From positions 14,898 through 51,852 of the forward strand of contig CAYXFZ010000004.1 in assembly GCA_964464385.1 (NCBI GenBank): 36,955 nucleotides of DNA, written 5' to 3'. Below the pieces are notes generated by a model. That model was not told the DNA's origin, did no database searches, and saw nothing but the letters and a program-made list of their open reading frames with translations. The translations under genes and the position numbers were made by a program. How positions within the stretch are numbered: the first letter of the stretch is position 1; every line of letters starts with the position of its first letter. Of this stretch, positions 10,208 through 35,705 are shown piece after piece. The stretch is from an uncultured Planctomycetales bacterium. Its GTDB lineage: Bacteria > Planctomycetota > UBA1135.

Positions 10208-10208
10208 A

Positions 10209-11192: not shown

Positions 11193-11193
11193 A

Positions 11194-18238: not shown

Positions 18239-18305
18239 GAGAAGGGGCGGAGTGGGATCAGCCGAGCTTAGACTGTATCTTGCGCCGATTCCCATGGAGA
18301 AAACG

Positions 18306-19501: not shown

Positions 19502-20833
19502 CTAAGGGGAAGGGTTCTTTTTCCGCAACAGCGCCGCGCGCAAAATCGAGAAGTCTTGCCGACGCGGCAAAAGCAAATTGCGGAGTGGGCGGGCGGCGAC
19601 CAAGGACCAGCCCCAGGCCAAGACTAGGCCGTAAACGGAATAACAAATCAGGGAACTGAGGGCCGCGCCCACCATGCCAAAGGCGGGAATCAAAAACCAG
19701 TTCATGCCTAGATTCAGCGCCAAGGCCAGGACTGCGGCACGCACGGACCACTCCGGACGACCGCGGCCGATGAGATCAGCGTTGCAAATCTGGCCAATGT
19801 TTCCAACCACGAGTCCGGGCAGGAAGAGGACGAAGGGCAGGACCGCGCCGACATAACCAGTTCCGTAAAAGAAGGGCACGGCAGGCCAGGCCACCAGGGC
19901 AACAACGAGGGAAATCGGGAGGGAGATCAATACCCAGCAGCGGGTCGCTAGAGGCGTGATGTCTGCAGTTTCTTCTGCCGACCGGCTCATGAGTCGCGGA
20001 ACCATGGCTCGTTCCACGGCATAGCCCAGCAATTGAAACATCAGGGCCAAGGAGGAAGCCACGGCATAGATACCTACCTCAGCCACGGGCCGGAACCATC
20101 GCATGAGGGCAATATCCACTCGAAACAGCAGGAAAAGAGCAAGGGCGGCGGGCCATACCTGCAAGCCAAAACGAAAGGCTCCCTTTGCCAGACCCGAACT
20201 GCAGCGCCGCGGACCCCGCCAAACTCGAGCCAATGCGTAGAACAAAAGGAGATTGCCCAGGGCAAAGGAGGCCAGCCGGGCAGAAATGGCGCTGGCAACA
20301 GTTTCCCCGGAAAAGGAGAAAAGGAGGGGCAAAAAAACGACAAAAGAGGCCGCTTGGATGGCTTTGGCCAAATTTGCTTGCAATATTTTCCCCATTCCAA
20401 TCAAAACGCAGAAAAGGAAGCTATCCAAAACCAAGAGGGGAAGCATGCAAAGGGCCAAACTCAGGCCCAGAGGTAAGTTTTTTGCGGATTCATGCACTCC
20501 GCCTCCCCTTCCTCGCACAAAATCCAAAATTTCTGGAAAAAACAAAAAGAGCGCTCCCGCGCCCACACAACCCACCAAAAGGGCGAAAACCATGGCATTG
20601 AGGCCCACTCGGGCCGATGATTCGGGCTCTCGGGCCACCAAACGGGTGGAAGCAGTGCCGAAACCCAACTGAACCACCATGCGTGCAACTTCAGGAACGA
20701 AAACCAACAACGCAAAAACACCCCGTCCTTCGGGCAATAACGCCCGAGCTATGAGGATTCCCGCCAGGAATTGGCATGCGGCCGAAGCCCCTTGGAAGAC
20801 AACGGAACCACCTGTGTCACGAAGAACGCTCAT
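19502..20833 (-). CDS. wzx: Wzx-type oligosaccharide flippase
   Basis: About 12 TM segments, ARALLPEGRG, RVDI..., EVGIYAVA and LIPAFGMVGAA; polysaccharide locus context. Confidence 0.85.
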   Translation of the reverse strand: MSVLRDTGGSVVFQGASAACQFLAGILIARALLPEGRGVFALLVFVPEVARMVVQLGFGTASTRLVAREPESSARVGLNAMVFALLVGCVGAGALFLFFPEILDFVRGRGGGVHESAKNLPLGLSLALCMLPLLVLDSFLFCVLIGMGKILQANLAKAIQAASFVVFLPLLFSFSGETVASAISARLASFALGNLLLFYALARVWRGPRRCSSGLAKGAFRFGLQVWPAALALFLLFRVDIALMRWFRPVAEVGIYAVASSLALMFQLLGYAVERAMVPRLMSRSAEETADITPLATRCWVLISLPISLVVALVAWPAVPFFYGTGYVGAVLPFVLFLPGLVVGNIGQICNADLIGRGRPEWSVRAAVLALALNLGMNWFLIPAFGMVGAALSSLICYSVYGLVLAWGWSLVAARPLRNLLLPRRQDFSILRAALLRKKNPSP

Positions 20834-20978: not shown

Positions 20979-21983
20979 GTGAGACTCTTCACCTTCCTCG
21001 CCGCCGCTTCGCTAACCTCGCTTGCCGCGAGTTGCGGCTCGCCTCTTGCACTCGGAGTTCCTGTGGCAATGGGGTCCATTCCCGCCCCGACTCGGGTAAC
21101 CACGGAATACCGGGTTTCCCGAAGCGATGTTCTACTGCTGGAGTTTTCGCGAGAATGGCCCGAGATCGAGGTCTACAAGTTGGGCATAGGGGACAAGATC
21201 CAAATTCTCATCCAGGAGGCGCCGCTTGAGGCAGACCTGGATCTTGAACTTGTTGTCGCTCCCGATGGCAGCATCACATACCCCAAGCTCGGCACCATCA
21301 AAGTTGCTGGACGAACTCCTGCGGATTTGAAGCAAGAAATGCAAGCTGCCTTTGTGGAAATTTTTCCGGGCGCCACCCTGGACGTCATTCTCCTACAAGC
21401 AGACGCACGGACGGATCAGTTTGTTTCTCTTCTTCTGCAAAATCCTTCCGGCTCAACCCGAGAATTGACCGTCAGTCTTTCGGGCCAAATTTCTGTTCCC
21501 GGCGTGGGTCAGGTGGAAGTTCTTGGGCGCACCTTGGCGGAAGCAGAAGAGGACATTAATGCGCTTCTACACAAGAAAATCCCGACCCTTTCCGTCTCCT
21601 TGAATTCCATCTCCATCCCCAGCCTCAACTTTACCGTGGTCGGGGAGGTCATCAAGCCAGGCACCTTCCCCATTCTGGGCAACATCACTTTGGTGGAAGC
21701 CCTGGCCACCGCCGGCTGGGCCTCAGAATACGCTGACTTTCAACACATCGTCGTCATCAGTCGCGCCGGCGACCGTTTGCAGGATGGGCTGGTGGACTGG
21801 CGCGTTTACGACGTGGAGACTTTCTTAGAACACGGCCACAGTCTTGCAGGAATCCAACTTCGCCCCCGTGATGTTGTCCTCGTGCCGCACACGGGCATTC
21901 GGGATGTGAACCGCTTTGTGGCCCAGTACATCCAACGAAACATGCCTGTTAATCTCGGCGCTGGCTTCCGCATCAATCCCTAA
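20979..21983 (+). CDS. wza: Wza-like polysaccharide export lipoprotein (OPX)
   Basis: Lipobox LAASC, YKLGIGD...VAPDGSITYPKLG.I.VAG.T export domain, SLBB VVGEV.KPG, LRPRDVVLVP and an amphipathic C-terminal helix. Confidence 0.87.
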   Translation: MRLFTFLAAASLTSLAASCGSPLALGVPVAMGSIPAPTRVTTEYRVSRSDVLLLEFSREWPEIEVYKLGIGDKIQILIQEAPLEADLDLELVVAPDGSITYPKLGTIKVAGRTPADLKQEMQAAFVEIFPGATLDVILLQADARTDQFVSLLLQNPSGSTRELTVSLSGQISVPGVGQVEVLGRTLAEAEEDINALLHKKIPTLSVSLNSISIPSLNFTVVGEVIKPGTFPILGNITLVEALATAGWASEYADFQHIVVISRAGDRLQDGLVDWRVYDVETFLEHGHSLAGIQLRPRDVVLVPHTGIRDVNRFVAQYIQRNMPVNLGAGFRINP

Positions 21984-21995
21984 GGCAAGCCTTTC

Positions 21996-24155
21996 ATGGA
22001 TACCCCCGCCCCGAATACCCGCAGCACGGACACCCCGCGGCGAATCCTTCGCGCCATCTTTGAATGGCGGTGGTCGGCGATCGGATTTTTTATCACGTTT
22101 TTCACGTTTTTGATGTTCATCGCGTATTTTTGGCCTCCCTCTTACACGGCGAAGGCCTCCGTGTTGGTCAAGGCCGGGCGAGAAAATGCTCCTGAGGGCA
22201 CGACTCAGTCCACCGAGGGCCTCCGGCTTTCCTCAACTGCCGAGGATGTGATTTCAGAAATCAACGTCATGTTGGCGCGACCCGTGCTGGACAACGTGGC
22301 CACCCGGCTTGAGGAGCAGCAGAAAGAAAAGAAAAAGAAGAAAGGATTTGGCAAAGTTATGGAAGGGTTTCGTGATTGGTGCGTAAGCATCGGGCTACAA
22401 CCCTCGGTTGAAGATCACGAGCGGCTGATTGGCAAGCTGTCCAATAAGATCAAAGTCGAGCTCGAACCCGCGACCAATGTTCTTCTTCTTGCCTATGAGG
22501 ACAAGAGTCCAGCCACAGCCCAAAAGACGCTCCAGTATCTTCTGGAAGATTATCTGGATTTCCACATCAAGATCCACGCAAATGGCCGGTGGAATGCAGC
22601 TACGGAATCCTACGATCTCACTGCAGCCAAGTTTTTCAACCGGGAAGCGGAACAATATCTGGATAAACTCCAGATCCAGCAGGAGATGCTAACCAAGTTT
22701 CGACAAACCAACTTGGGTGGTGAATTTGAAAAGAAACGCGATCTCCTCGTGCAGGAGCTAGTCACCACGGAACAAGCACTGGTGACCCTCAAGGCCTCCT
22801 CACCGGAAGAGATCGTTATTGGGGCGATTGCTGAAACTCCAGAAATCTCCTACAACCATCAGCGGCTCCTGGATCTGAATATCGAATTGCTGGAAATGGA
22901 ACAACAGCTGAGGGGCTTGGACGTTCCAACGCAGGGGCAAGAGCAGTTTGCCTCTGGCAATTTGTCGGACTCCCCGGAGATCTCCTTTTATAACCAGCGG
23001 CTTTTGGACTTGAGCCTTCAACTTGCCGAAAAGGTAGGTCAATACAGCGACCCGGACTCCTCCGTGGAAGTGCGCAATCTCCGCAACCAAATCGCGGCCA
23101 CGAGAAGCGCTCTGGTAGAGCAAATTGGACTCAAGAGAGCCTACTTGGAGCGACGTCGCCAAGCCCTCTTGTTCTCCGTCGAAACCGTGAAAACGGACCA
23201 GAGAAAACTCCTGGAACAAAAACAAAACTACTTGGAGCGCCAAGTTGGTTCCCTGAAATCCTCCGTTCGGGAGGTAGAGCAAAATCAGGCAGAGTTGGAA
23301 AAAATCCTCCGCGAGCGGGATCGTCTTGAAGCCGCATACCTCAAGTACAAGGACAAGGCTGACGAAGAGCGCATCAGCGAAGCTTTGGACGCCGCGAGCC
23401 TGACCAACGTCAAGGTTTTGGAGTGGCCATCCCTGCCTCCAAAACCTTCCTTCCCCAACCGATTCATGATGGCCCTACTGGCCATTTTTCTAGGCATCCC
23501 CGCCTCCATTGCGGTCGCCCTCCTGCGCGCCTACTTCCACGGCCGGGTTGCCACGGTGCAAGATGTGGAAGAAATCCTTGGCGTCCCGGTCCTGGCCTCC
23601 GTCCCTGCCATGAATGCCCGCGAACACGCCAAGGCCTTCCTCAATGGCATGCCCGATTCGGTCATGAATGCTGCACGACTTTCCCTTGCCTCCGCGCGAG
23701 CGCGAGGACACAAAGTAATCCATGTTGCTTCATCCACGTCACTAGAGGGAGCGGGCACCCTTGCTGCAGCCATGTGTTTGCGGGCCTCGGAAGAAGGAAT
23801 CCACGTCGCCTTTGCCACCCCCTCCGGCTTCCCTGAGGAACTCTCCGAAATCGAAGGCGTTGACATTCTGCAATTGAAAGATCGGACTCCGGAAGATCAG
23901 GAAAAAGACCTCAACTTGGCCCGAGAATCCTATGACCTCATTGTCCTCTCTGGCACTCCATTGGCAGCAACCGATGGTGGTTTGATGTCTTCTCTTGCGG
24001 ACTCCTCCGTCTTTGTCGTGAGCGGAACTGGAGTTCACTTTGAAATTGCCCGACGCGGTGTGGCCATGCTTCGACGCTACAGTTCCGAAGTCCTGGGTGC
24101 CGTTTTGACCCGGCGGCGGAACCCCGTTCCCAGCTTTTTCTACAAGCGCATCTGA
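21996..24155 (+). CDS. Wzc/GumC-like polysaccharide co-polymerase with degenerate kinase domain
   Basis: TM1 followed by PSYTAKASVLV, long coiled coil, PSLPPKPSFP before TM2, DVEEILGVPVLASVP, and a C-terminal P-loop-like domain ending VLGAVLT. Confidence 0.87.
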   Translation: MDTPAPNTRSTDTPRRILRAIFEWRWSAIGFFITFFTFLMFIAYFWPPSYTAKASVLVKAGRENAPEGTTQSTEGLRLSSTAEDVISEINVMLARPVLDNVATRLEEQQKEKKKKKGFGKVMEGFRDWCVSIGLQPSVEDHERLIGKLSNKIKVELEPATNVLLLAYEDKSPATAQKTLQYLLEDYLDFHIKIHANGRWNAATESYDLTAAKFFNREAEQYLDKLQIQQEMLTKFRQTNLGGEFEKKRDLLVQELVTTEQALVTLKASSPEEIVIGAIAETPEISYNHQRLLDLNIELLEMEQQLRGLDVPTQGQEQFASGNLSDSPEISFYNQRLLDLSLQLAEKVGQYSDPDSSVEVRNLRNQIAATRSALVEQIGLKRAYLERRRQALLFSVETVKTDQRKLLEQKQNYLERQVGSLKSSVREVEQNQAELEKILRERDRLEAAYLKYKDKADEERISEALDAASLTNVKVLEWPSLPPKPSFPNRFMMALLAIFLGIPASIAVALLRAYFHGRVATVQDVEEILGVPVLASVPAMNAREHAKAFLNGMPDSVMNAARLSLASARARGHKVIHVASSTSLEGAGTLAAAMCLRASEEGIHVAFATPSGFPEELSEIEGVDILQLKDRTPEDQEKDLNLARESYDLIVLSGTPLAATDGGLMSSLADSSVFVVSGTGVHFEIARRGVAMLRRYSSEVLGAVLTRRRNPVPSFFYKRI
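22833..23030 (+). repeat. internal diverged duplication in wzc (135-bp period)
   Basis: ETPEISYNHQRLLDLNIELLE (from 22833) versus DSPEISFYNQRLLDLSLQLAE (from 22968); similarity is also visible at DNA level. Confidence 0.8.
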
Positions 24156-24167: not shown

Positions 24168-25682
24168 ATGGCACCCCGCCAAAACCTCGACCTGGACGGA
24201 ATGGCCGGAGGTAATCTTCGGCCTAGCTGGATTCCAACCACTCTGACCTTCCTCGGGGCCATGCTTGCAGCCGTTGGCGCCGCCCTGACCCACTACGGGG
24301 GGGCGCGCTGGCAGGCCGTAATCATGGCGGCTCTCCTCATCGGGGTTTCGCTGATTGCTTGGGTTTATATCCGACGACAGTTTATTGAACTGGTCACTTT
24401 TGTCCTGACGTTTACTATGCCCATTGCACTGAACATTGAGTTGTTCGTGATCACAGGAGAACCCAGTCCATCGGGAGCGCCCAGCAACGTGACCCTTTGG
24501 GACAAGGATTTTTTGATGTTGATCTTGGGTGCCAATTGGTTGGTGGACCTTGTATTGCGGCGAGAAAAACCGACGGCATCATTGGGAGCTGCGGGTTGGT
24601 GGATGGCCTTCCTCACCTTTTGGATTCTTTCTTTCCCCATCAACAGCGTTTGCCCAACGCGCTCGTTCGTTGCCTGGCTGGAATGGACTCGCTTGGTTTT
24701 GATCTTCGTTTACCTCGCCAAGAAGGTGGACAGTAGGCGCATGCTGATGTGGATCGTCCAAGGCATCATGGTCCAAATCTGGGTAGAGAGCATGGTTGCC
24801 CTGGCCCAGTTTGCAACGGGTGGGAAATTGGGACTCAAATTTTTGGGAGAGGTTCGAGTCAAGGAAATGGAAATGCCAGGTGGCGCCCTGATTCGGACGG
24901 GCGGGCTGATGGGCCATCCCAATGCCCTGGCTTTATGGCTCTGCATGATTACCCCACTGCCACTTGCCTTGGCCCTCAATCCCAAGGAAATACTCAGGAT
25001 GCGGCTCTGGTATGCCGCGACCTACGTCATGGCCCAAGGAGTTTTGATCATGACTTTTTCTCGGGCCGGTTGGGTTTGTGGTGTCATCGACCTCTTTCTG
25101 GTCTTCCACATTGCGCAAAAGCGATTCGGCAAACCAGCCGTGATTTCTCTTTGGTTCCCCGCCATGGGGTTTGTCCTCTTTGCCGCCATCTTATGGATGG
25201 TCTCTCCGGAAATTCGACATCGAGTTGGCGGCCCCGACACCGGCTCCACTTTTGCTCGGATCCCGCAAATGATGACGGCCCTCAACATCATTGCCCATTT
25301 GCCGTTCGTCGGCACGGGAATTGGCTCCTACGCCCCCTACATCCTCCCCTATGCGGACTTTGACGGACGCTACCTCTCCGCCCTTTTCTACCGGGTTCAC
25401 AATGGATTTCTCCTCTTCACGGCCGAGGGAGGAATCCCGGCCGGCTTGGGATATCTCGCGTTTTGGTTTGCCGTAATCCGGAAAGGTTGGGGGATTTGGC
25501 GGGTCAAGGATGACCACTTGGCTCTCATTGGCTTGGCGGTCATGGTTGGACTTCTGTCTTGGTGGCTGAAGAGCATGTACAACATCCACCATCCCGTCAT
25601 GGAAAGGACCATTTTCCTGCAATGGGCCCTCGTGTTCATCGTCTGGAATGTCCACCACAAGGAGAAGAAAAAGCAGGAATGA
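24168..25682 (+). CDS. Wzy polymerase / O-antigen ligase family protein
   Basis: Multi-TM protein with GLMGHPNALA, TFSRAGW, PFVGTGIG and VHNGFL..TAEGG. Confidence 0.87.
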   Translation: MAPRQNLDLDGMAGGNLRPSWIPTTLTFLGAMLAAVGAALTHYGGARWQAVIMAALLIGVSLIAWVYIRRQFIELVTFVLTFTMPIALNIELFVITGEPSPSGAPSNVTLWDKDFLMLILGANWLVDLVLRREKPTASLGAAGWWMAFLTFWILSFPINSVCPTRSFVAWLEWTRLVLIFVYLAKKVDSRRMLMWIVQGIMVQIWVESMVALAQFATGGKLGLKFLGEVRVKEMEMPGGALIRTGGLMGHPNALALWLCMITPLPLALALNPKEILRMRLWYAATYVMAQGVLIMTFSRAGWVCGVIDLFLVFHIAQKRFGKPAVISLWFPAMGFVLFAAILWMVSPEIRHRVGGPDTGSTFARIPQMMTALNIIAHLPFVGTGIGSYAPYILPYADFDGRYLSALFYRVHNGFLLFTAEGGIPAGLGYLAFWFAVIRKGWGIWRVKDDHLALIGLAVMVGLLSWWLKSMYNIHHPVMERTIFLQWALVFIVWNVHHKEKKKQE

Positions 25683-26338
25683 GCAACAAGAATCCAGTCG
25701 CTAGGATCGTGGCTCGCTTTCGCAAAGGTGGCATCCGTGGAATTCTGGAAGTGCTTAAGTGGAAGCTCTTCCGCTGGAAAAACATGGTCGTGACCATTCG
25801 CGATGTTGGCGCTCCCTTAGCCGAGGTTCCTCGCCACCGCAGCCATTCGGTGGTTTTTCGCTTGGCCACCCTGCATGATCTGGACGCCATGTCGTTCAAC
25901 TTTCCGGAAAAACGAACTTGGTACAAACAACGCTTGGAAACTCCGGGGTATTGGTGCGACCTAGGCCTGGAAGGGGATGTGGTGGTGGCCCACAATTGGT
26001 TTTGCACCGTCCCCCACTTAGACCCTGAAATGGACTGTTGGGTTCGCCCCAAGGAAGGCCAAGCGTATTGGTTTGAGGGCTGGTGCCTGCCTGAATGGCG
26101 CAATCGTGGCGTGAGCAATCGTGGCGTAAAACACTGCTTCGAGGACTTGTTTCCGGAAATGGGAATCCGAGAAGTCATGACCTTACTGGAAGAAGACAAT
26201 CAATCCACGCGACGCTTGCACGCCCGCTATGACTTCCGCGATGTCGGCCGTCAAGTACATTTGCGACTGGGCCCCTTCCGCTTCAACTCGCCCGTTCTCT
26301 CCCTGCGCAAATCCAAAGATTCGCGTTCGCAATCATGA
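25679..26338 (+). CDS. GNAT family N-acetyltransferase
   Basis: PEWRNRGVS acetyl-CoA-binding motif A, N..TRRLH..YDF motif B. ATGA overlap with wzy. Confidence 0.75.
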   Translation: MSNKNPVARIVARFRKGGIRGILEVLKWKLFRWKNMVVTIRDVGAPLAEVPRHRSHSVVFRLATLHDLDAMSFNFPEKRTWYKQRLETPGYWCDLGLEGDVVVAHNWFCTVPHLDPEMDCWVRPKEGQAYWFEGWCLPEWRNRGVSNRGVKHCFEDLFPEMGIREVMTLLEEDNQSTRRLHARYDFRDVGRQVHLRLGPFRFNSPVLSLRKSKDSRSQS

Positions 26339-28215
26339 CCATTCTGACTCGGTTCCTGGCTCCCGGAATTCTGGCCGGGTGGTGCCTAGGCGCCCTGGAA
26401 TCCTTTTTGGTGGCAGCAAGTACTGGGCTCACCTTCGACCAGCCATTGCGCGACACTTTGGAAGTATCCCTCCAGTCCGGCGCTCTGGGAGGGTTGCTGA
26501 GTTTGCTTTTTTTCTGTTTTCCGCGCCCGCTCCGCCCGACCGCCCCATTGCATTGCTTTGCTTGGGTGTCCGGCTTGCTTCTATTTACGGTTGGCAGTGG
26601 TTGGATCCACATCCGTCTCTTCGTTGGAATTTCGCCTTGGCAATGGGTTCCTCTGGCGAGTAATCTGCTGGCGGGTTTCCTGTGTTTTCTACTGGCCCGC
26701 TGGATCTCCCGCAAAGATGAATTTCTTCGGGCAGCTTTATTGATTGCCTTTGTAGGCCATTTGGGTGCATGGATCTCTTCCGGCCGCGATGCTGAGGTTT
26801 CGCAAGTCGCCGCTCATTCTGCCGTCGCCAACGCACCCAATGTTCTAGTTCTCTTGGTGGACACCTTGCGCGCGGACCATCTCTCCTGCTACGGCTATGA
26901 ACAAAAGACCTCGCCACGGCTGGATGCTTTTGCCGACCAAAGTATTCGCTTTAACCAAGCGTATGCCCAAGCCACCTGGACGCGCCCATCGGTTGCCTCC
27001 TTGATGACTTCGCTCTATCCGGCCAGTCACAGAACCAACAAACTCGAGGTTCGCATCCCAGAATCCTTGACCACCATGGCCGAAATGTTTGCTGCAGGTG
27101 GTTATGAGACAGCTGGGTTTTCGGCCAACCGTAATGTTTCTCGGATCTTTGGCTTCGCTCAGGGCTTTCACTCATTCTGGAGCCGTGGGTCGGAAGAACG
27201 GAATACCATGCTTCGTTTCACAGTGATGGACAAGGTTCGAGACCTTTTCGCCAAACGAACCGGGCAGGGCCGAAAAAAATCCGCTACGCCGGAAACTCGA
27301 GCCGACATCTTAAATCAGGAAGTGCTGCGCTGGGCTGATGCGCGCAAAGCAGGTGCTCCTTGGTTCGCTTATGTGCAATACATTGACCCGCACGGGCCCT
27401 ATGCCCCTCCCCAGGAATTCCTCGACGAACTGGGCGTTCCTCTCGTTGCCAAGGAAGTTCTCCGTAGCATCGGTGATGTCGGCAAGGAGCCGCCGTGGCC
27501 CTTTGGTAGCCGCGACCCCGTGGATCCCGACTTGCTGGCCCAAGTGATCCGTCTCTACGACGCGGAAATTCAATACTGCGATCGCGAAATTGGCCGCCTT
27601 CTGGACGCACTGGAACAAAGAGGGTTGCTTGAAAACACATGGATCGTGATCACTTCCGACCATGGTGAAGAATTTTTCGAGCACCAACAATTTGGGCATG
27701 GTCAATCCGGCTTTGATGAGCTGGCGCGCATTCCACTCTTGGTTTCCGGCCCCGGCCTGAAGCCTGGAATCTCCAATCAGCCCGTGGAACTGGTGGATCT
27801 TCTTCCCACCATGGCCGTCTGGGCGGGCCAATCCATTTCCTTTCCGGTGCATGGTTCCCCCATTCCCTCTTTGCTGGGGGCGGCCGAAACTCCCGGCAAG
27901 AGCGCCTTTTTGCAAAACATCAAAGGACATCGCCTCGACGCCATGATCCAAGATGGCTACAAAATCGTCCGCGTCCTTTACCAAGAGGAAGAGCGGTGGT
28001 TGCTTTACGACCTCGGGAGTGACCCCGGGGAAACGAAAAACCTTGCCGCAACCCAACCCGATCGACTTGCTTCCTTGCAAGCAGCCTTGCGCATGTCGGT
28101 CACTGTGGCCGCCCAATTGCGAGTGGATCAAATTGATACCGTTGCCATCCAAGGAGATGTCCGCCAGGATTTGTATTCCTTGGGCTATATCGGAGACGAA
28201 GAGGAAGAAGAATGA
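26335..28215 (+). CDS. membrane-anchored sulfatase-like hydrolase/transferase (Thr at nucleophile position)
   Basis: N-terminal TM bundle, PNVLVLLVDTLRADH, WTRPSVASLMTSLYP, DPHGPY, TSDHGEEF and LYDL..DPGE; ends SLGYIGDEEEEE. Confidence 0.88.
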   Translation: MTILTRFLAPGILAGWCLGALESFLVAASTGLTFDQPLRDTLEVSLQSGALGGLLSLLFFCFPRPLRPTAPLHCFAWVSGLLLFTVGSGWIHIRLFVGISPWQWVPLASNLLAGFLCFLLARWISRKDEFLRAALLIAFVGHLGAWISSGRDAEVSQVAAHSAVANAPNVLVLLVDTLRADHLSCYGYEQKTSPRLDAFADQSIRFNQAYAQATWTRPSVASLMTSLYPASHRTNKLEVRIPESLTTMAEMFAAGGYETAGFSANRNVSRIFGFAQGFHSFWSRGSEERNTMLRFTVMDKVRDLFAKRTGQGRKKSATPETRADILNQEVLRWADARKAGAPWFAYVQYIDPHGPYAPPQEFLDELGVPLVAKEVLRSIGDVGKEPPWPFGSRDPVDPDLLAQVIRLYDAEIQYCDREIGRLLDALEQRGLLENTWIVITSDHGEEFFEHQQFGHGQSGFDELARIPLLVSGPGLKPGISNQPVELVDLLPTMAVWAGQSISFPVHGSPIPSLLGAAETPGKSAFLQNIKGHRLDAMIQDGYKIVRVLYQEEERWLLYDLGSDPGETKNLAATQPDRLASLQAALRMSVTVAAQLRVDQIDTVAIQGDVRQDLYSLGYIGDEEEEE

Positions 28216-29384
28216 CCTCATCTCGATTGCTCGTCTTCGAAGGCAACTCAGTCTTTTCGGATCATGCGACCTCTTGGAACGATCTTCTCAAACGATCCGA
28301 CTCTCCTTCATTTTTTCTTCGCTCCGACTGGTTGGATCTTTGGGCCCGGCATTGGGGCCAAGATCACCGCCTCTTTCTCGTCGTCTGCGAAGAAGATGGG
28401 CAATGGATCGGCGGGGCTCCGCTTGCCTTGGGCAGGGGCCGCGTCGGCGGCCGCTGGCCGGTGCGCAAATTGGAATTCGCCGGCATGCCCTGGTTCGACC
28501 GAATGGAAATTCCAGCGATTTCCGCCGCCGCCTGTAAACAGACTTTGCAGGCCATTCTTTATTGGGCCAAGACGGATCTCTGCGCTTGGACCGCCTTCGC
28601 CCTGCAAGAGGTTCCCAACGGATCGGATACCTTGCACGCCTTGCAAACTCTGAGCAAAGAACAAGTGTTTCCTCTGCACTCCGTCCTTGCCTCCGAAGCG
28701 CCCATGGTAGATCTTCTCTCGGGCGGCAACACCTCCAGCAAATACCGCCGACAACTTCGGCAGTCCATGGAACAACTTCAGGAACTGGGCCAAGTGGATG
28801 TGGATTTCTGCGTGGTCCCCGCCGCAAGAGTCGAAGAATGGATGATCGAGTGCGCAGAAGTGGAAGCAGCTTCTTGGAAAGGAAAGGATGAGGTTGGGGT
28901 ATTTCGCGATTCCTCCCATCGCGCATTCATGGCTGAAATTTGGACTGCACTTGCGCCAGAAAAAGGGGTTGCTCTCTGCACCATTCGCTTGGATGGAAGG
29001 CTTCTGATTTACCACTGGGGATTTCGCCACCTCAATCGCTTTCTTTCCTACAACTTGGCCCAGCGTCCGGAGACGAATGCCTTACGCGGTGGCTCCTTGG
29101 CCCTGAAACATATGGTGCAACATGGGTCGGATCTGGGCTTTACGGCCATAGACGCCTCTCGTGGATCCTTGACCAGCCCCAACATCATCGGTCGCTACCA
29201 CGGCCCTGTCCGTTGCCACGCAAACGCCGTTCTTTATGGACCCAACGCCGCTGGCAGTGCCCTGGCAACCCTTCGGGGATCCTGGATTCCAGCTGGTCGC
29301 CGCCTGCTTGGAAAAGCAGCGCGACGCAAACTTCCGCCCTGTGATACTGTTCCCGATTTGCCATGCACCGACGCGTCTGTCTAG
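28212..29384 (+). CDS. CelD/BcsL-like (Acetyltransf_6) double-GNAT protein
   Basis: WNDLL....SFFL..DWL..W, IGGAPL, EAASWKG and IRLDGRLL....GF. ATGA overlap with the sulfatase-like gene. Confidence 0.8.
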   Translation: MTSSRLLVFEGNSVFSDHATSWNDLLKRSDSPSFFLRSDWLDLWARHWGQDHRLFLVVCEEDGQWIGGAPLALGRGRVGGRWPVRKLEFAGMPWFDRMEIPAISAAACKQTLQAILYWAKTDLCAWTAFALQEVPNGSDTLHALQTLSKEQVFPLHSVLASEAPMVDLLSGGNTSSKYRRQLRQSMEQLQELGQVDVDFCVVPAARVEEWMIECAEVEAASWKGKDEVGVFRDSSHRAFMAEIWTALAPEKGVALCTIRLDGRLLIYHWGFRHLNRFLSYNLAQRPETNALRGGSLALKHMVQHGSDLGFTAIDASRGSLTSPNIIGRYHGPVRCHANAVLYGPNAAGSALATLRGSWIPAGRRLLGKAARRKLPPCDTVPDLPCTDASV

Positions 29385-30574
29385 GCAAGATCCCGGTCCT
29401 CACGTTGCATAGCGTGCGACGGCACGTTACCGAGAACTTGGGAGACCTCACTCTCCCGGACGATGTGTTTGAATTGTTGCTGCAATCCCTGCAGGCGGCC
29501 GGCTACCAATCGATTCGCTGTTCCGAACTCCTGGCCCACTTGGATCACGATGCCCCCCTGCCCCAGCGATCGGTGTTGCTGACCTTCGACGACGGTTATC
29601 TGGATAATCACACCGTTGCTGCTCCGTTGCTGCGCAAGTATGGTTTTTTTGCAACCGTATTTGTTGCCACTTCCATGCTGCATCCTGAGGAAGTGGTTCG
29701 CCCCACTACCGACGACACCGATTCCCCGCTCGAAACGGGATTCTTGTCGGCAACGGAAATCTTTTCCCTGGAAAAGGATGGGGTCTTCGAATTTCAATCC
29801 CACTCCCACGGCCACGACCGCGTGGCCATTTCCGCGGAGGTCGTGGATTTTCATCGCCCCGATGCGCCCTGCTGGTGGCTGTTACGTCAGCGATCGAAGC
29901 TGGAAGACCGCGCCCTGGAAGAAGAGCGTAGGAACAAGGCCGAACGAGTGCCTTGGGGCGTTCCTGTCCGAAAATCCGCTTGGGCTTGCGAAGCGGCCGC
30001 ATTTCATGCCCAAGAGAATCAGGAAAACTTATTGACTACTCATGTAGCCAGCCATGGCGGAGCCGCATTCTTTAAGCAAAACGACTGGCGAGCGCAACTG
30101 CAAGAAATTGTGGAATCCACCCCGGCTCAGGGCATGTTGGAAACAACGGAAGAAAGGAAGAAACGAGTCCTCATTGAATTGAAGCAAAGCAAGGAAATCC
30201 TCGAGGACATGCTCGGCCGTACTGTCCCCTATCTTGCTTGGCCGGGTGGCGGAATCGAGGCGCAAGCCCTGCGGTGGGCTTTGCAAGATGCCGGCTACGA
30301 AGCAACCTTTGGCACCAACCGCTCTTGCCATGGCGTAACTCCAAACCGCGATGCCATCCCTCGCGCTTACTTTCGCCAAAACTACCGCGGCCATTTCGAC
30401 CGCTCCCTGCGGGTCCAGCTTGCTCGGGGGATTTTGGACTGGGAAGCGGGTCGCATTTCAGGCTACCTCCGAAGTGCCGCCGTCCGCCGCCTCATGGGCT
30501 TATGCAAAAACCCTGCTTTCCCAAATCAACCGCGAACCAGGCCGGGCAAACCTCATTCTTCGTCGCCCACATAA
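29363..30574 (+). CDS. CE4 polysaccharide deacetylase with a large insertion
   Basis: IPVLTLH, LLTFDDGY, QSHSHGH and YLAWPGG. Start position uncertain. Confidence 0.87.
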   Translation: MHRRVCLGKIPVLTLHSVRRHVTENLGDLTLPDDVFELLLQSLQAAGYQSIRCSELLAHLDHDAPLPQRSVLLTFDDGYLDNHTVAAPLLRKYGFFATVFVATSMLHPEEVVRPTTDDTDSPLETGFLSATEIFSLEKDGVFEFQSHSHGHDRVAISAEVVDFHRPDAPCWWLLRQRSKLEDRALEEERRNKAERVPWGVPVRKSAWACEAAAFHAQENQENLLTTHVASHGGAAFFKQNDWRAQLQEIVESTPAQGMLETTEERKKRVLIELKQSKEILEDMLGRTVPYLAWPGGGIEAQALRWALQDAGYEATFGTNRSCHGVTPNRDAIPRAYFRQNYRGHFDRSLRVQLARGILDWEAGRISGYLRSAAVRRLMGLCKNPAFPNQPRTRPGKPHSSSPT

Positions 30575-32418
30575 CCCAAAGATGCCAAGTTTGCCTCCTC
30601 TTCGGCAGTGGGGCCACTGACCGGATCCGGTGTTTCAATGTTGGCCAAAAAAGTGTTCAATTCCGCGCGCATTTTCGCCAAGCGCTCAGGCTCAGCCGAA
30701 GCCTGATTGACCTCGATCCCCTGATTCAAGGGATAGAGTGCTTCCATCCCGGCCAAAGAGCGAACGTATTTCCAATTGGAACGCCACCATCCCTCCAACC
30801 TCAAATCTCCCAAGTTGCGTTGATAGGCCTCCATATAAATCCCGCGATCAGGCAAAACCCCGCCCACCAAGGCAGGGCCGAGATCCACACCTTGAAGGCC
30901 CTCAGGTAAGGCGAGACCTGCGAGGGAAAGCAGGGTCGGCATCAGATCCACTTGGCTAGCAGGAGAACCCACCCGCCGGCCCTTTTCCAGTCCGCCCGCG
31001 GGACGGATGGCGCAAACTACTTTTTGGGTCGCATCCCACAAGCTGTAGTGATGATTCAATGTGTATTGAAAGTCGGGATCGAAGTGGGCAGTTTCACCAA
31101 AACATTCACCATGGTCGGTCACAAGAACAACGATTGTATTTTTCAGTCCAGGATCCTTTTCCTCCACGGAAGACAAAAGTTCCCCCAGGAGGCCATCCAG
31201 TCGTTCAATTTCACCGCGCTGCAAGACCCATTCTTCTTCGACGGAAACGTCCGGCGCACGAGGACCCTCCGAGGCACGGGCAAGTACTCGATTGCGCACG
31301 GCATCCGGCGGAACATAAGGATGGTGGGCGTCGTAGAAATGAACCCACGAGAAGACAGGGCGATCGGAAACCTGGGAACGCCAACGGAGTGCTCGCGCCA
31401 AGGTGATTTCACCTGGAATGTATTTGCTGTTGGGGAGAAGGTCGCGAGGCAGAAGGCGTTCGGCAAGTTTGCTGCTGAAAGTCAGACCGGCCAGCAAAAC
31501 CGTGCCGGGAGAGGCGACCGGTCGGTCATCAAAGACCTGAAAACCACGGTCGAAATCGAACTGGCCGCGCAAAGCGTAGCCGGAAACAAAGCCGCCGGTG
31601 ACATAGCCCGCCATCTCTAAAACTTCAGGAAGGCGGGGAAGATTCAATTTGGGAGCGCGAAATCCGTTGCTTCTTTGGCCGTGGGTGGGTGGATAAAGTC
31701 CGCTCAAAATGGAAGCATGAGCGGGCCCGGTAATGGAAGAAACCGCACGAAAATCATCAAAGAACCATCCCTTGGCGGCAATGCGATCTAGGTTGGGTGT
31801 GTCCAAACCGCCCCCACCAAAGAGGGGCAAGGTGTCGGCACGAACCGTATCCCAAGTCACCAACACGATGTCCGGAAGACCTTCCGCAGAAAGCGGGTGG
31901 ATGGGGGCACGGGAAAGAAGGTCGGTTTCCGTGCCGCGCAGGGAATACATGCCAAAAAGCAGAGGGAAGACGGCAAGAGATGCGAAAAAACCTGCTCGCA
32001 CTTGGTCGACCGTTCCCTGGCCTCCGGCAACGATGCGTAAGGCCAGGCTTCCTAGCCATAGCCACAAAAAAGTACCGACCACGGCCCACCCCCACCAAAC
32101 CCCGGCCGTGGCAACGGGCATGCTCCAGTGCCATGGCGCCAAACCACCCAAAACGCGCAGGGCAACCAGAGTGAAGGCGCCGCCGACCAAGAGAGACTTG
32201 AGAGGAAGGGCGATGCCAAACCGCATGAAAGCCAAGCCCAAGAGGAGGCCACACCAGCCATAGAGCACCATGGGGGCCAACGGACCCACCAACCAAAACA
32301 TCGGGTCCACGATGACCGCCTTTTTCAAGGAAAAGACGAGGCCGGCTTCAAACAAACCGAGGGCCCAACCGGTGGCAAGCCCCGCGCAAGCTTCATGGGT
32401 GGTCCAGAGGCGCTTCAT
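30553..32418 (-). CDS. membrane-anchored sulfatase-like hydrolase/transferase (Thr at nucleophile position)
   Basis: TM N-terminus, VLVTWDTVRAD, SITGPAHASILSGLYP, HFYDAHHPY and TDHGECFGE; ends ASLGYVGDEE. Confidence 0.88.
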   Translation of the reverse strand: MKRLWTTHEACAGLATGWALGLFEAGLVFSLKKAVIVDPMFWLVGPLAPMVLYGWCGLLLGLAFMRFGIALPLKSLLVGGAFTLVALRVLGGLAPWHWSMPVATAGVWWGWAVVGTFLWLWLGSLALRIVAGGQGTVDQVRAGFFASLAVFPLLFGMYSLRGTETDLLSRAPIHPLSAEGLPDIVLVTWDTVRADTLPLFGGGGLDTPNLDRIAAKGWFFDDFRAVSSITGPAHASILSGLYPPTHGQRSNGFRAPKLNLPRLPEVLEMAGYVTGGFVSGYALRGQFDFDRGFQVFDDRPVASPGTVLLAGLTFSSKLAERLLPRDLLPNSKYIPGEITLARALRWRSQVSDRPVFSWVHFYDAHHPYVPPDAVRNRVLARASEGPRAPDVSVEEEWVLQRGEIERLDGLLGELLSSVEEKDPGLKNTIVVLVTDHGECFGETAHFDPDFQYTLNHHYSLWDATQKVVCAIRPAGGLEKGRRVGSPASQVDLMPTLLSLAGLALPEGLQGVDLGPALVGGVLPDRGIYMEAYQRNLGDLRLEGWWRSNWKYVRSLAGMEALYPLNQGIEVNQASAEPERLAKMRAELNTFLANIETPDPVSGPTAEEEANLASLGYVGDEE

Positions 32419-32430
32419 TCGGGCGGAATC

Positions 32431-34227
32431 TTACTCTTCTTCCTCGTCCACGTAGCCCAAAGACTGGAGAGTTGCCTGAGTGGCCGAGTCGAGATCAAAT
32501 TCTTCAGCCTTGCGAATTGGAATGGACGACCACCACCGCTGGAGTGCCAAGGACATGGCCCGTGCCCGAGCTGGATCCCGAATCAACCAATTGTCCGTTT
32601 CGAGAAAATTTCCATCTGCGGAGCCCCTGCGAAACAGCCACTCTTCTCCAGCCTGGGAGCGAATGTACTTCCAATCTCCTTGCACCCACCCCTGAAGCCT
32701 CTGGTCCCGCAAGCGCTTCTGCCAAGCCTCCATATAACGACCACGGTTGGCATCTACCGGTTGCAAAATATTTATCCCTTGCACACCTTCGGGCAAGGGA
32801 AGGCTTAAGACTGCACACAACATCGGCAGAACATCAACCTGCGTCGCCGGAACCTGGCTGCGATCTCCCCGCGTTCCCTTGCTTCCAGGCAAACGCAAAA
32901 TAGCGGGAACTTTTTGAGTGGCCTCGAACAAGCTTGGTTCGTGGGCCTGATGAATTCCGCCTTCACCAAAGCACTCGCCATGATCCGCGAGAAGAAGGAT
33001 CACCGTTTGCTCCAACCCAGGGTCTCGGTCATTCAAAAATTCCAGGAGTTTGCCCAAAGCGGAATCGAGCGCCATGATCTCACCACGTTGCAAGATCAGG
33101 GCTTCCTCATCGGCAGGGTCGAAAGCATGCGGCCCCTGGTCTGCACCCTTCTTGGCCACGGCTAGCATTTCGGAAGAGGGTTCATAGGGTGCATGTGCAT
33201 CAAAGAAATGGAGCCAAGCGAAGGTCGGCCGAGTCTGCTGCTCCATCCATTCGGTTGCTCTCTGCAAAACAGTTTCGCCGCGAATCATGCGCCGGGTGCC
33301 GCGCAAATCCGGCAAGAAGAGGCGAGCAAAAGAAGACGCGTATCCCCAGGATTGAAGAATGCGGCGCGTGGGAGTGGCCTCACTCCGATCGTCAAAGTAT
33401 TGGAATCCTTTGGCAAAACCAAATTGGGAATGGACAGGAAGAGCAGCCACAAAGGCACCGGTTGCCCAGCCGGCGGAATGTAAAATTTCCGGCAAGCGGG
33501 GCATTTCCAATTGCGGAGATTTCTCTCCATTTGCCCGCAAGCCATGACTTGGCGGAGTGAGTCCTGACAATATGGACGCGTGGGCGGGACCTGTAAGAGG
33601 AGCAACGGACAGAAAATCGTCGAACACGAGACCCTCCGCAGCCAATTGATCCAGGGCCGGAGTGGACACGCCGCCACCGCCAAACAGGGAAAGACTGTCC
33701 GCACGCACGGTATCCCAAGTCACTAAAACGACACTGATCGCATCTGCGGGGGCGGTTTGGCGAGATGCGACCGACTCCTTGGCTTGATCTCGGTGACCGT
33801 AAAAATATAGCCAGAAAACCCCCGGGGTCAAACAACAGAGAACACCGGCTCCAGCAAGCCAGCGCGGCAACTGGGGCCGCAATGAAAACTTGAACAGCAC
33901 TAGAGAGGAGACGGATCCCAATGCTGTCCATCCCAAGCCCGACATCTCAGGAAGGCCGCGGCGAATGCAAAGAAATCCAAGAAACAAGCAACCCAGAAAA
34001 TACAAAAACGTCCAAGGAAGTTGGCGTTTTCGTCCAAGAGCCATCGCAGCCAACCAACCCAAAATCCCATAGAAACAGCAATTCGTCACCGGAACAGCCA
34101 AATAAATCGAAGCGTCACCCAAGGATCCGGCACCACTCAAGACCACGCCTGCCTCAAACAAACCCAAGGCCCAACCCAAAAGTAGTCCACGCCGCTCCGA
34201 CGAGCCAGGATTCATAACCTCTTTCAT
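32431..34227 (-). CDS. membrane-anchored sulfatase-like hydrolase/transferase (Thr at nucleophile position), paralogue of the adjacent gene
   Basis: VLVTWDTVRAD, PLTGPAHASILSGLTP, HFFDAHAPY and ADHGECFGE; ends QSLGYVDEEEE. Start is ATG 34227 (ATGA overlap with the M20 stop) or 34215. Confidence 0.88.
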   Translation of the reverse strand: MKEVMNPGSSERRGLLLGWALGLFEAGVVLSGAGSLGDASIYLAVPVTNCCFYGILGWLAAMALGRKRQLPWTFLYFLGCLFLGFLCIRRGLPEMSGLGWTALGSVSSLVLFKFSLRPQLPRWLAGAGVLCCLTPGVFWLYFYGHRDQAKESVASRQTAPADAISVVLVTWDTVRADSLSLFGGGGVSTPALDQLAAEGLVFDDFLSVAPLTGPAHASILSGLTPPSHGLRANGEKSPQLEMPRLPEILHSAGWATGAFVAALPVHSQFGFAKGFQYFDDRSEATPTRRILQSWGYASSFARLFLPDLRGTRRMIRGETVLQRATEWMEQQTRPTFAWLHFFDAHAPYEPSSEMLAVAKKGADQGPHAFDPADEEALILQRGEIMALDSALGKLLEFLNDRDPGLEQTVILLLADHGECFGEGGIHQAHEPSLFEATQKVPAILRLPGSKGTRGDRSQVPATQVDVLPMLCAVLSLPLPEGVQGINILQPVDANRGRYMEAWQKRLRDQRLQGWVQGDWKYIRSQAGEEWLFRRGSADGNFLETDNWLIRDPARARAMSLALQRWWSSIPIRKAEEFDLDSATQATLQSLGYVDEEEE

Positions 34228-35648
34228 GTGCGAACGTGAGCGTCCAAAATAAGGGCCACGCTGGCCGTCAAACGCTTGCCCGTAGGAATATGCAGGAATT
34301 CGTTTGGACCATGTGCATTGGCTTCCGGCCCAAGAACTCCTGTAACAAGAAATTGCGCTTCTGGAAAGCGTTCCCCCAACATGCCCATGAAGGGGATCGT
34401 GCCGCCTTCTCCCATCCATGCCGGTGGCTCGCCAAAAAATTGGTGCGAAGCCTGAGCAACGGCATTTTGCAGCCATGGCGCGAGCGGCGGGGCATCCCAA
34501 CCATTGGCGCCCTTCTCTGCCTGAAATTCAACCCGGGCGCCACAAGGCGGATCCGTTTCCAAAAGGAGTTTCAATTCCTCGTTGGCGGATTTCCAGTCCG
34601 CCGTCGGCGCAAGACGCAAGGACAACTTGACCGAGGTGCGGGGACGCAAGACGTTGCCGGCATCGCCAAGATCGGGCAGACCGCCAGCACCCGTCACCGA
34701 AAGAGAAGGGCGCCAAGTGCGTTGCAGAACGGCTTCCGCCGGGTCATTCGCCATGGACTGAACTCCTTCGGCGAAGGGGAATCGGCCCCAAACTGCTTCG
34801 CCAAGAATTTCGCCTGATTCGCGCGCCTGGCTTTTGCGCTCTTCCGAGATCTCGGCATGACATCCCTCCACCAAGACTCGCCCCGTATTGGAATCTTCCA
34901 ATCGATCCAAAAGCTGGCGTAGAACTCGAAAGGAGGAGGGAACAATGCCGCTGGCATCGCCGGAATGCACACCTTCTTGCAACACATCAATCACCAAATT
35001 CCCGCCAATCATGCCGCGTAGGGATGTCGTCCCCCAAAGCCGATCGTAATCTCCGGCACCGGAATCCAGACAGATCACCAAATTAATCTGGCCAATCCGA
35101 TCCGCTAAATGTTCGACATAGTGGGGCAAATCCGGAGAACCACTTTCTTCGCTGCATTCGATGAGGATGGAACAACGGCGATGCCGACCGCCATGCAAAC
35201 GAAGGCCCTCGATGGCGGCCAAGGAGGCGAATGCCGCGTACCCATCATCCGCGCCACCCCGCCCATAGAGGCGATCACCCTTGCGAACGGGTTTCCACGG
35301 CCCAAGATCCTCGCGCCAGCCCTCCATTTCGGGTTGTTTGTCGAGGTGGCCATATAGCAGAACTCCATCGCCTGGTTCGCCGGGGACTTCCATGAACAAG
35401 AGTGGCGTGCGTCCAGGAAGACGCACCACCTCGATCGCTACACCATCCACTTGGCGGGAACGGCACCACGCCTCGGCTTGGGCAACGGCTTCGTTCAAAA
35501 ACCCGTGCTCCTCCCACTTGGGATCAAAGAGTGGAGATTTGCACGGATTGGCAATGTAGGTCGTCAGTTGGGGCAAGATTTCCTCTTCCCAGATCTGATC
35601 TGTCCAGACCATCAATTGGCCTGGATCAAGACTCGTAGCGGATTCCAT
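34224..35648 (-). CDS. M20 family metallopeptidase/dipeptidase-like
   Basis: YGHLDKQP, LYGRGGADDG, EESGS, GVHSG, GEGGTIPF and NAHGPNE. Start ATG 35648 preceded by GGAG. Confidence 0.92.
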   Translation of the reverse strand: MESATSLDPGQLMVWTDQIWEEEILPQLTTYIANPCKSPLFDPKWEEHGFLNEAVAQAEAWCRSRQVDGVAIEVVRLPGRTPLLFMEVPGEPGDGVLLYGHLDKQPEMEGWREDLGPWKPVRKGDRLYGRGGADDGYAAFASLAAIEGLRLHGGRHRRCSILIECSEESGSPDLPHYVEHLADRIGQINLVICLDSGAGDYDRLWGTTSLRGMIGGNLVIDVLQEGVHSGDASGIVPSSFRVLRQLLDRLEDSNTGRVLVEGCHAEISEERKSQARESGEILGEAVWGRFPFAEGVQSMANDPAEAVLQRTWRPSLSVTGAGGLPDLGDAGNVLRPRTSVKLSLRLAPTADWKSANEELKLLLETDPPCGARVEFQAEKGANGWDAPPLAPWLQNAVAQASHQFFGEPPAWMGEGGTIPFMGMLGERFPEAQFLVTGVLGPEANAHGPNEFLHIPTGKRLTASVALILDAHVRT

Positions 35649-35705
35649 CTTCTCCAGGATACGCCCTCCGAGCACCCCCCCCTCGGCGGCGTTTAGGATG
35701 CGTCC

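Follow-up and report, generated by a model that had tools for sequence, protein, structure and literature searches.

A 36,955-nucleotide stretch of DNA from an uncultured Planctomycetales bacterium (contig CAYXFZ010000004.1; this whole stretch is hereafter the window) encodes three membrane-anchored proteins, S1, S2 and S3, in which the sulfatase fold has been kept in predicted form while the active site appears to have been rebuilt: threonine takes the place of formylglycine, the sulfate-holding arginine, lysine/histidine and lysine residues are gone, and a residue set of the phosphoethanolamine-transferase type is present. From these features and the genes around S1, we give roughly an even chance to the reading that S1–S3 are periplasmic threonine-nucleophile phospho-ester enzymes connected with the synthesis of envelope glycans. 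The parts of this reading differ in strength, as residue pattern and conservation argue strongly that sulfatase activity is very probably lacking and favour phosphoryl-transfer chemistry via a phospho-threonine intermediate as the probable activity, and a role in envelope glycan synthesis is the most likely one for S1, at about balanced prospects. The three open reading frames (ORFs) and the material on which their descriptions rest are:

26335..28215, plus strand: S1, 626 amino acids (aa), ‘WTRPS’ type; ORF, PF00884 match, AlphaFold (AF2) model, invariant columns, alignment with EptA and sulfatases
30553..32418, minus strand: S2, 621 aa, ‘TGPAH’ type paralogue; ORF, PF00884 match, AF2 model, alignments
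32431..34227, minus strand: S3, 598 aa from the ATG at 34227; paralogue of S2

The mechanical ORF of S3 extends to 34500, and the start at 34227 was preferred because its ATGA overlaps the stop of the preceding M20 peptidase gene and because S2 and S3 then have parallel N-termini. All three proteins matched the Pfam family PF00884 (Sulfatase; E-values of 1.3e-50, 4.2e-28 and 7.2e-32 for S1, S2 and S3) and also passed the cut-off of PF01663 (Phosphodiest), although PF00884 outscored PF01663 in each and the best PF01663 stretch in S1 and S2 covered only part of that model. The preliminary description of this DNA had placed three ORFs with an N-terminal transmembrane (TM) bundle and an alkaline-phosphatase-superfamily domain at these sites, which the Pfam matches, hydrophobic segments and models bear out; the metal-ligand-type motifs that it quoted were found as well (DTLRAD in S1 and DTVRAD in S2 and S3; DPHGPY, DAHHPY and DAHAPY; SDHGE, TDHGE and ADHGE). 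S2 and S3 are 40% identical and S1 shares 27–28% with either, the match between S1 and S2 being nearly full-length. At the family level, the S1-type and S2-type alignments were homologous over 580 columns, a span that takes in the C-terminal tail as well as the membrane domain (hhalign E-value of 6.9e-78). The best homologues came from uncultured Planctomycetota, and the nearest S1 relative in the species-representative genome set was only 36–37% identical; a search with the S1-type family yielded 3748 relatives among 8000 candidates scored.

The nucleophile motif reads WTRPSVAS in S1 (Thr216, codon 26980-26982, plus strand) and TGPAHAS in S2 and S3 (Thr230, codon 31729-31731, and Thr212, codon 33592-33594, minus strand). 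The proposal that this threonine occupies the nucleophile position held in four independent comparisons. In phmmer alignments, Thr216 of S1 and Thr230 of S2 fell on the formylglycine position of the solved sulfatases 4upi, 7oz8 and 5g2v; in a MAFFT alignment, the threonine stood opposite the Cys of YidJ and the Ser of AslA and YdeN from Escherichia coli; and hhalign placed it opposite the formylglycine position of YidJ. Conservation was near complete, with threonine kept in 119/120 S1-type and 120/120 S2-type homologues. In the fourth comparison, those of S1–S3 aligned with a threonine of E. coli EptA that is presumably the EptA catalytic threonine. The S2/S3 arrangement T-x-P-x-H...G-L-Y-P..H-G is one that we take to resemble the nucleophile motif of the NPP type (PF01663).

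Two sulfatase patterns, both taken from PMC5066984, were also compared with the homologues. Neither the formylglycine catalytic pattern ([SAPG]-[LIVMSTPAR]-[CS]-x-[PA]-x-R...) nor the second signature (G-Y-x-[TSCV]-x(3)-G-K-...-[HLGN], containing Lys113 and His115) matched any of the 240 homologues or any of S1–S3, with AslA, YidJ and YdeN matching both patterns as controls and EptA, EptB, OpgB, BcsG and LapC matching neither. According to PMC5066984, the nucleophile of 4058 true sulfatases is Cys (78.9%) or Ser (21.1%), and Arg55 (99%), Lys113 (94%), His115 (81%), His211 (99%) and Asp317 (99%) are conserved; PMC5066984 also states that oxidation of threonine would yield a ketone and not formylglycine, and already records threonine proteins within PF00884 that are not sulfatases. 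Alignment showed that the +4 arginine, the G-K-x-H signature and the distal lysine of sulfatases are all replaced in S1–S3, so that, by those definitions and with threonine as nucleophile, the suggestion that these proteins are not formylglycine sulfatases stands.

With a fold that is that of sulfatases, and with sulfatases as the best matches in sequence, S1–S3 could still be read as sulfate-ester enzymes, either sulfatases or sulfate-editing enzymes of a sulfated exopolysaccharide, that use threonine or another route. We consider this very improbable, since threonine would not yield formylglycine (PMC5066984) and the residues just listed, including an arginine conserved in nearly all true sulfatases, have been replaced. 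Within the window, no formylglycine-generating enzyme or anaerobic sulfatase-maturating enzyme was found, and Pfam identified no sulfotransferase. A radical S-adenosylmethionine (SAM) gene at 10945-12096 (plus strand) was considered as a sulfatase-maturating enzyme and set aside, as it gave only weak matches to other families, with HpnJ-like models among them.

Around the threonine, S1 residues D176-T177, T216, H353, D442-H443 and H455 fell on the E-T, T, H, D-H and H of EptA and EptB. The core residues identified were D176, T177, T216, N265, D351, H353, D442, H443 and H455 in S1, within a catalytic domain spanning approximately residues 165-600, and D190, T191, T230, D363, H365, D435, H436 and H456 in S2. 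Equivalences were drawn from sequence alignment with E. coli EptA, EptB and sulfatases, not from structural superposition, and are listed by position:

First metal ligand pair: D176-T177 in S1, D190-T191 in S2; E-T in EptA/EptB; D-D in AslA/YdeN and D-T in YidJ
Nucleophile: T216 in S1, T230 in S2; T in EptA/EptB; C or S in sulfatases
Residue at +4: V in S1, H in S2; R in sulfatases
Signature-II lysine: N265 in S1, without a conserved residue in S2; K in sulfatases (the YidJ lysine lies opposite N265)
Mid-domain histidine: H353 in S1, H365 in S2; H in EptA/EptB and in sulfatases
Asp-His pair: D442-H443 in S1, D435-H436 in S2; D-H in EptA/EptB; D-N in sulfatases, D-H in YidJ
Distal residue: H455 in S1, H456 in S2; H in EptA/EptB; K in YidJ

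Column by column, the core residue set matched that of EptA and EptB, with an acidic residue before threonine in the first ligand pair. The site lists for MCR-1 (Glu31, Thr32, Thr70, His180, Asp250, His251 and His263) and EptA given in PMC7576196 are of the same kind as the S1 set, and the MCR-1 list has the same residue order as S1 and an equal spacing of 12 residues between the Asp-His pair and the last histidine (PMC7576196).

AlphaFold models of S1 and S2, built on 86 and 73 sequences, had high confidence (pLDDT of 92.3 and 91.0, pTM of 0.91 and 0.90) and presented five long N-terminal helices followed by an alpha/beta domain. The predicted TM helices span residues 2-30, 37-60, 71-94, 104-125 and 130-150 in S1 and 5-35, 41-66, 73-93, 109-130 and 134-161 in S2, and S3 has five hydrophobic segments within its first 142 residues and an N-terminus that aligns with that of S2. 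By direct reading, the sequence shows Arg/Lys clusters at the N-terminus and in the two loops that follow helices 2 and 4. Because of this distribution, the N-terminus is placed inside and the catalytic domain in the periplasm by the positive-inside rule only, and S1–S3 are accordingly predicted to be inner-membrane proteins with a five-helix anchor and a periplasmic, metal-dependent domain of the alkaline-phosphatase superfamily.

A five-helix layout with a periplasmic domain is also found in LapC (YejM), which scored 64.5 bits with the S1-type profile and 38.1 bits with the S2-type profile, and S1–S3 might on that basis be non-catalytic sensors or scaffolds of the same sort. This is scarcely plausible, given that both families keep all the putative metal and nucleophile residues with little or no variation and that LapC, unlike S1–S3, lacks the D-H pair in the alignment.

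Two short motifs recur at the ends of these proteins. The first membrane helix carries G-W-x-L-G-x-x-E, which reads GWCLGALE in S1 (26335-26430) and GWALGLFE in both S2 (32320-32418) and S3 (34130-34227) and puts a conserved glutamate inside the first predicted membrane helix. At the other end, L-x-x-L-G-Y lies a few residues from the C-terminus in both families (S1, 28171-28215; S2, 30553-30600; S3, 32431-32480; and most of the S1-type loci surveyed below, numbered L001-L078), with conservation of L613 in 113/120, G617 in 119/120 and Y618 in 119/120 S1-type homologues and of L614 in 118/120, G615 in 115/120 and Y616 in 116/120 S2-type homologues. An acidic tail comes after this motif in the proteins of the window (DEEEEE, DEE and DEEEE), and the motif also terminates soluble and fused relatives.

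The three proteins had been described as lying inside a Wzy polysaccharide locus. The locus is real, as an initiating transferase, glycosyltransferases, flippase, polymerase, co-polymerase and outer-membrane exporter of the Wzx/Wzy type are encoded together, and S1 lies inside its operon; S2 and S3 do not, being part of a convergent operon downstream. The genes concerned are:

15584..17026, minus strand: initiating polyprenyl-phosphate sugar-phosphate transferase (Bac_transf, E-value of 1.2e-65; TIGR03025, 357 bits, above the cut-off of 295.55)
17042..18313, minus strand: GT4 glycosyltransferase (Pfam)
17967..19475, plus strand: GT4 glycosyltransferase (Pfam, NCBIfam; domain at residues 129-477)
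19502..20833, minus strand: Wzx-type flippase (Pfam Polysacc_synt)
20979..21983, plus strand: outer-membrane polysaccharide export protein, Wza-like (Pfam Poly_export, SLBB)
21996..24155, plus strand: polysaccharide co-polymerase, Wzz/GNVR, Wzc-like (PF02706, PF13807 and TIGR03007, all below cut-off)
24168..25682, plus strand: Wzy_C/O-antigen-ligase-like polymerase (Pfam PF04932)
25559..26338, plus strand: GNAT acetyltransferase directly before S1 (PF00583, E-value of 1.2e-06)
28212..29384, plus strand: Acetyltransf_6 protein (FemAB-like GNAT) directly after S1 (PF13480, E-value of 1.3e-18; Atlas score of 0.98)
29363..30574, plus strand: polysaccharide deacetylase with PgaB/IcaB-like N-terminal domain, last gene of the plus-strand operon (PF01522; NCBIfam PgaB models below cut-off)
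34224..35675, minus strand: M20/M25/M40 metallopeptidase-family gene, first of the M20-S3-S2 operon (PF01546, PF07687; PRK07907, 226 bits, below the cut-off of 300)

S1 shares four bases with each of its neighbours (at the GNAT stop and at the Acetyltransf_6 start) and is translationally coupled inside the Wza/Wzc-like/Wzy/GNAT operon. On the minus strand, the ATG of S3 overlaps the M20 stop (ATGA), coupling the M20 gene translationally to S3, and the M20-S3-S2 operon converges on the S1 operon. The second GT4 gene probably starts downstream of 17967, because its domain covers residues 129-477. The co-polymerase scored 24.2 bits with PF02706 (cut-off 25.5), 23.4 bits with PF13807 (cut-off 27.7) and 126.6 bits with TIGR03007, below its cut-off; it contains a lysine run (KEKKKKKG) and gave a marginal tyrosine-autokinase match (TIGR01007, E-value of 2e-4), and its kinase part may be degenerate. 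An XrtA/PEP-CTERM polysaccharide system was considered and rejected, as several NCBIfam models stayed below cut-off, the FemAB-like protein went unmatched and the window held no exosortase.

The neighbourhoods of S1-type relatives were surveyed in a genome scan with the S1-type alignment, which confirmed at least 601 relatives and from which 78 loci were kept; Pfam was applied to 149 long ORFs of 15 loci with a predicted multi-helix N-terminus and to three re-checked ORFs. The sole widely recurrent neighbour was a glycosyltransferase cluster with 40 ORFs in 21/78 loci, a raw count for which enrichment was not quantified, and a member lay at most two genes from the S1-type gene in 14 of the 21. 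Single linkage merges GT4 and GT2 in this cluster, the representative being GT4 and some members GT2 by Pfam. Among the nearest relatives, a locus from Planctomycetes UBA1135 (L001) repeats the window layout with Wza, Wzz, flippase, Wzy, deacetylase, two GT4 and two S1-type genes, and L002 and L003 each combine two S1-type genes with Acetyltransf_6 and glycosyltransferases. A further glycan locus, L054, holds CapD-like, GT4, epimerase, MurJ-like, sulfotransferase, Bac_transf and DegT genes, and in L062 a PMT_2 gene adjoins the S1-type gene. In several relatives, S1-type and S2-type genes occur on shared contigs, as judged from consecutive locus tags and matching lengths of the longest contigs.

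Fusions pointed in a similar direction. With the threonine confirmed by pattern, relatives were fused to GT4 (P0234), to PMT_2 of the GT-C family (P0244) and to the lipid-flippase-type domain LPG_synthase_TM (P0109; PF03706), and SAM methyltransferase fusions, likewise with confirmed threonine, made up 4/33 long relatives. Two more were fused to PMT_2 (P0246) and GT2 (P0271) and left the threonine pattern unmatched; the PMT_2 partners are also recorded as PMT_2/YfhO. The fused relatives listed also include P0251-P0253 and P0257; TPR-repeat fusions account for 7/33 long relatives, and second domain copies also occur. A glycan-synthesis role is assigned to S1 because of the shared five-helix domain, its operon position, the synteny of near relatives, the glycosyltransferase fusions and the precedent of the enzyme GacH considered at the end; the corresponding link is weaker for S2 and S3 because both sit behind the M20 gene.

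The pairing of S1 with the Acetyltransf_6 gene was found again in 5/78 loci by the Acetyltransf_6 profile, all of them in Planctomycetota (window 26335-29384; L002:1-5494; L003:2-4603; L005:4958-9359; L006:9356-13492; L008:9146-12462, the last from the cultured Engelhardtia mirabilis Pla133). In L005, L006 and L008, Acetyltransf_6 was the only neighbour in common with the window, and no glycan-synthesis genes were found near the pair in L006 and L008. Together with the fusion of an S1-type domain to LPG_synthase_TM in P0109, this recurrence would suit a scheme in which the S1-type and Acetyltransf_6 proteins act on a membrane lipid or lipid-linked precursor, for example in modified head-group remodelling, and the polysaccharide locus is a mere neighbour. 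We regard such a scheme as rather improbable, since the pair or S1-type genes lie among glycan genes in the window and in L001–L003, no gene for lipid synthesis was recognised in the window, and the Acetyltransf_6 protein was matched by no NCBIfam model. L005 and L006 also share a 65%-identical protein of approximately 332 aa, without a Pfam match, between the S1-type and Acetyltransf_6 genes.

Set against the reading of S1–S3 as glycan-linked phospho-ester enzymes are their affinities by profile and fold, the form and context of many relatives and the position of S2 and S3. As to affinities, the Foldseek matches listed against the Protein Data Bank (PDB) were only sulfatases, choline sulfatases and phosphonate monoester hydrolases (best E-values of 6.6e-25 and 8.5e-23; target TM-score of 0.6-0.7), and hhalign gave a probability of 99.9% for YidJ and of 65.8% for EptA, the latter over the catalytic domain alone. 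Scores of E. coli proteins against the two family profiles followed the same order:

YidJ: 194 bits (S1-type), 189 bits (S2-type)
AslA: 91 bits (S1-type), 77 bits (S2-type)
YdeN: 87 bits (S1-type), 133 bits (S2-type)
LapC: 64.5 bits (S1-type), 38.1 bits (S2-type)
EptB: 55 bits (S1-type), 52 bits (S2-type)
EptA: 53 bits (S1-type), 45 bits (S2-type)
OpgB: approximately 2 bits (S1-type), approximately 2 bits (S2-type)
BcsG: approximately 1 bit (S1-type), approximately 2 bits (S2-type)

No NCBIfam model reached its cut-off for S1–S3, the best score, 140 bits with an arylsulfatase model, falling short of the 481 required. The EptA, CptA, MCR and LtaS models of NCBIfam gave S1 19-40 bits against cut-offs of 404-1250 (LtaS, 20.7 against 970) and left S2 and S3 unmatched. 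S1–S3 thus lie outside the EptA/MCR and LtaS/GacH families and carry the sulfatase fold, as predicted, and PF00884. No similarity of the TM domain of S1–S3 to that of EptA was detectable by Pfam, Atlas or hhalign; an Atlas search with S1 residues 1-160 gave a best score of 0.87 and 0.82 for the EptA_B_N cluster, values in the range of shuffled proteins that are evidence neither way. In a tree made by a quick method, the S1-type and S2-type groups each fell on one side of a branch (support of 88 and 75), the E. coli sulfatases joined the S2-type side (support of 89), and EptA, EptB, LapC and BcsG sat on very long branches; it lends weak support only, and no direction of evolution was drawn from it. 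The likeness to LtaS and EptA that had been put forward consequently holds for the layout of five TM helices and a threonine domain and fails for close kinship by profile, fold or TM domain.

Since profile and fold put hydrolases closest among characterised relatives, and all three proteins pass the PF01663 phosphodiesterase/nucleotide pyrophosphatase cut-off, S1–S3 could be membrane-tethered periplasmic phosphodiesterases or phosphatases that only hydrolyse, trimming phospho-substituents, freeing material from a lipid carrier or scavenging phosphate, with helices that merely anchor them. Many relatives outside Planctomycetota lend themselves to such a role, with an N-terminus that is no more than a signal-peptide-like segment, or is of another kind, and lacks a TM bundle, and these soluble forms are often 445-520 aa long; lipid-donor transfer therefore cannot be the general function of the family. 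Gene context adds two cases. In a polysaccharide-synthesis locus from Binatia (L074:5943-12975), three PF01663 genes of the NPP type flank the S1-type gene, making four superfamily genes in a row, and at L044:50-18195 four tandem S1-type paralogues stand among genes for GH39, a methyltransferase, GHL15/Golvesin_C and a heparinase II/III-like lyase, a context that, unlike that of the window, looks degradative. We hold this explanation to be possible, if unlikely, because the conserved bundle, homologous over the full length between S1-type and S2-type families, exceeds what a simple anchor would need, and because the GT4, GT2, GT-C and LPG_synthase_TM fusions and the biosynthetic operon of S1 point to synthesis.

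The remaining counter-evidence comes from the loci themselves. A member of the glycosyltransferase cluster was not seen in 57/78 loci, and homologues of Wza, Wzc or Wzy were recovered in only 1/78, by a phmmer screen with the polysaccharide proteins of the window other than the second GT4 (17967-19475). This screen had low sensitivity, as the Acetyltransf_6 genes in L006 and L008 escaped it and were picked up by Pfam. Nothing related was found nearby by Pfam in L004, L010, L011, L024 and L041, of which L010, L011 and L024 are on contigs shorter than 7 kb. Sulfotransfer_3 genes (PF13469) lie with S1-type genes in two glycan loci (L003:6698-7612 and L054:15639-16805), and because of them sulfate chemistry, disfavoured above on residues, is not dismissible on context alone; they are hints of sulfated polysaccharides in those loci. 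S2 and S3, finally, are outside the polysaccharide operon. The expected association of such proteins with polysaccharide loci is therefore seen for S1, for its nearest Planctomycetota relatives and in the recurrent glycosyltransferases, and does not extend to most of the 78 loci, to the soluble relatives or to L044.

Under the reading that we prefer, of threonine-nucleophile phospho-ester enzymes serving envelope glycan synthesis, the threonine would attack a phosphoester, most likely a membrane-lipid head group or a lipid-linked intermediate, and a covalent phospho-threonine intermediate would form. From there the group would pass either to water or to a hydroxyl on the polysaccharide that the neighbouring Wzx/Wzy pathway produces. 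As the preliminary description proposed, the three proteins might act as one set on the exported polymer, by transfer and not hydrolysis. A wider proposal is that a very large threonine-for-formylglycine branch, with an active site like that of phosphoethanolamine transferases on a sulfatase scaffold, exists in Planctomycetota, Acidobacteriota, Myxococcota, Hydrogenedentota and further phyla, and that its five-helix membrane forms in Planctomycetota, with a FemAB-like partner, put a new kind of phospho-linked and possibly aminoacylated substituent from a membrane lipid onto Wzy exopolysaccharide; we offer it as speculation and think it unlikely in this complete form.

A full-text literature search returned nothing on the threonine family, on an EptA-like residue set on a sulfatase scaffold, on the link to polysaccharide loci or on the Acetyltransf_6 pairing. 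The new elements are the family itself, the residue pattern and the context, given that threonine non-sulfatases within PF00884 are already in print (PMC5066984). Genome surveys take PF00884 counts as sulfatases and infer degradation of sulfated polysaccharides from them, especially in Planctomycetota and relatives; the threonine family would inflate such counts, with 3748 S1-type relatives and, among the 240 homologues checked, none predicted to be able to make formylglycine. If phospho-decoration of exopolysaccharide is indeed their function, part of the ‘sulfatase’ count of these phyla would consist of envelope-building transferases and not degradative enzymes, and the family would be a means of probing the charge and chemistry of the polymers of biofilms in phyla that have been little studied.

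Elsewhere in the window, an ADP-glyceromanno-heptose 6-epimerase gene (10185-11192, plus strand; TIGR02197, 362 bits, above cut-off) precedes the radical SAM gene, whose real start is probably later than 10945 because the mechanical ORF overlaps the epimerase gene. ORFs of 143, 453, 186, 159 and 234 aa (12159-13948, plus strand; 35706-36684, plus strand; 36250-36954, minus strand) had no Pfam match, and the first two (143 and 453 aa) had no NCBIfam match either.

Compared with known systems, S1–S3 share with formylglycine sulfatases and phosphonate monoester hydrolases the overall domain, an SGSH_C-like C-terminal part and the P-H and D-H-G motifs, and differ from formylglycine sulfatases in having threonine, no +4 arginine, no G-K-x-H, a distal histidine instead of lysine, and a five-helix membrane domain. 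EptA, EptB and MCR-1 resemble them in five N-terminal TM helices, a periplasmic PF00884 domain and a threonine nucleophile, whereas, relative to EptA, S1–S3 lack the EptA_B_N domain (PF08019; Pfam), have Asp and not Glu as first ligand, and possess a large sulfatase-type C-terminal subdomain and the C-terminal LGY. Some transferases of the EptA group, to which BcsG and OpgE also belong, decorate glycans, BcsG being annotated in E. coli K-12 as a cellulose phosphoethanolamine transferase. LtaS, LtaP and GacH, of the same superfamily, likewise join a membrane anchor to an extracytoplasmic threonine-nucleophile domain. GacH, as described in 10.1101/337519, is an LtaS-like threonine enzyme encoded in a polysaccharide locus, and it decorates the polymer of that locus with glycerol phosphate from phosphatidylglycerol; it has eleven TM helices where S1–S3 have five. 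The operon position of S1 gives the same combination of a membrane-anchored threonine domain with a glycopolymer pathway, with orientation taken from the positive-inside rule only. If S1–S3 do decorate exopolysaccharide with phospho-groups, the task that LtaS, GacH, EptA and BcsG perform would have been solved a second time and independently.

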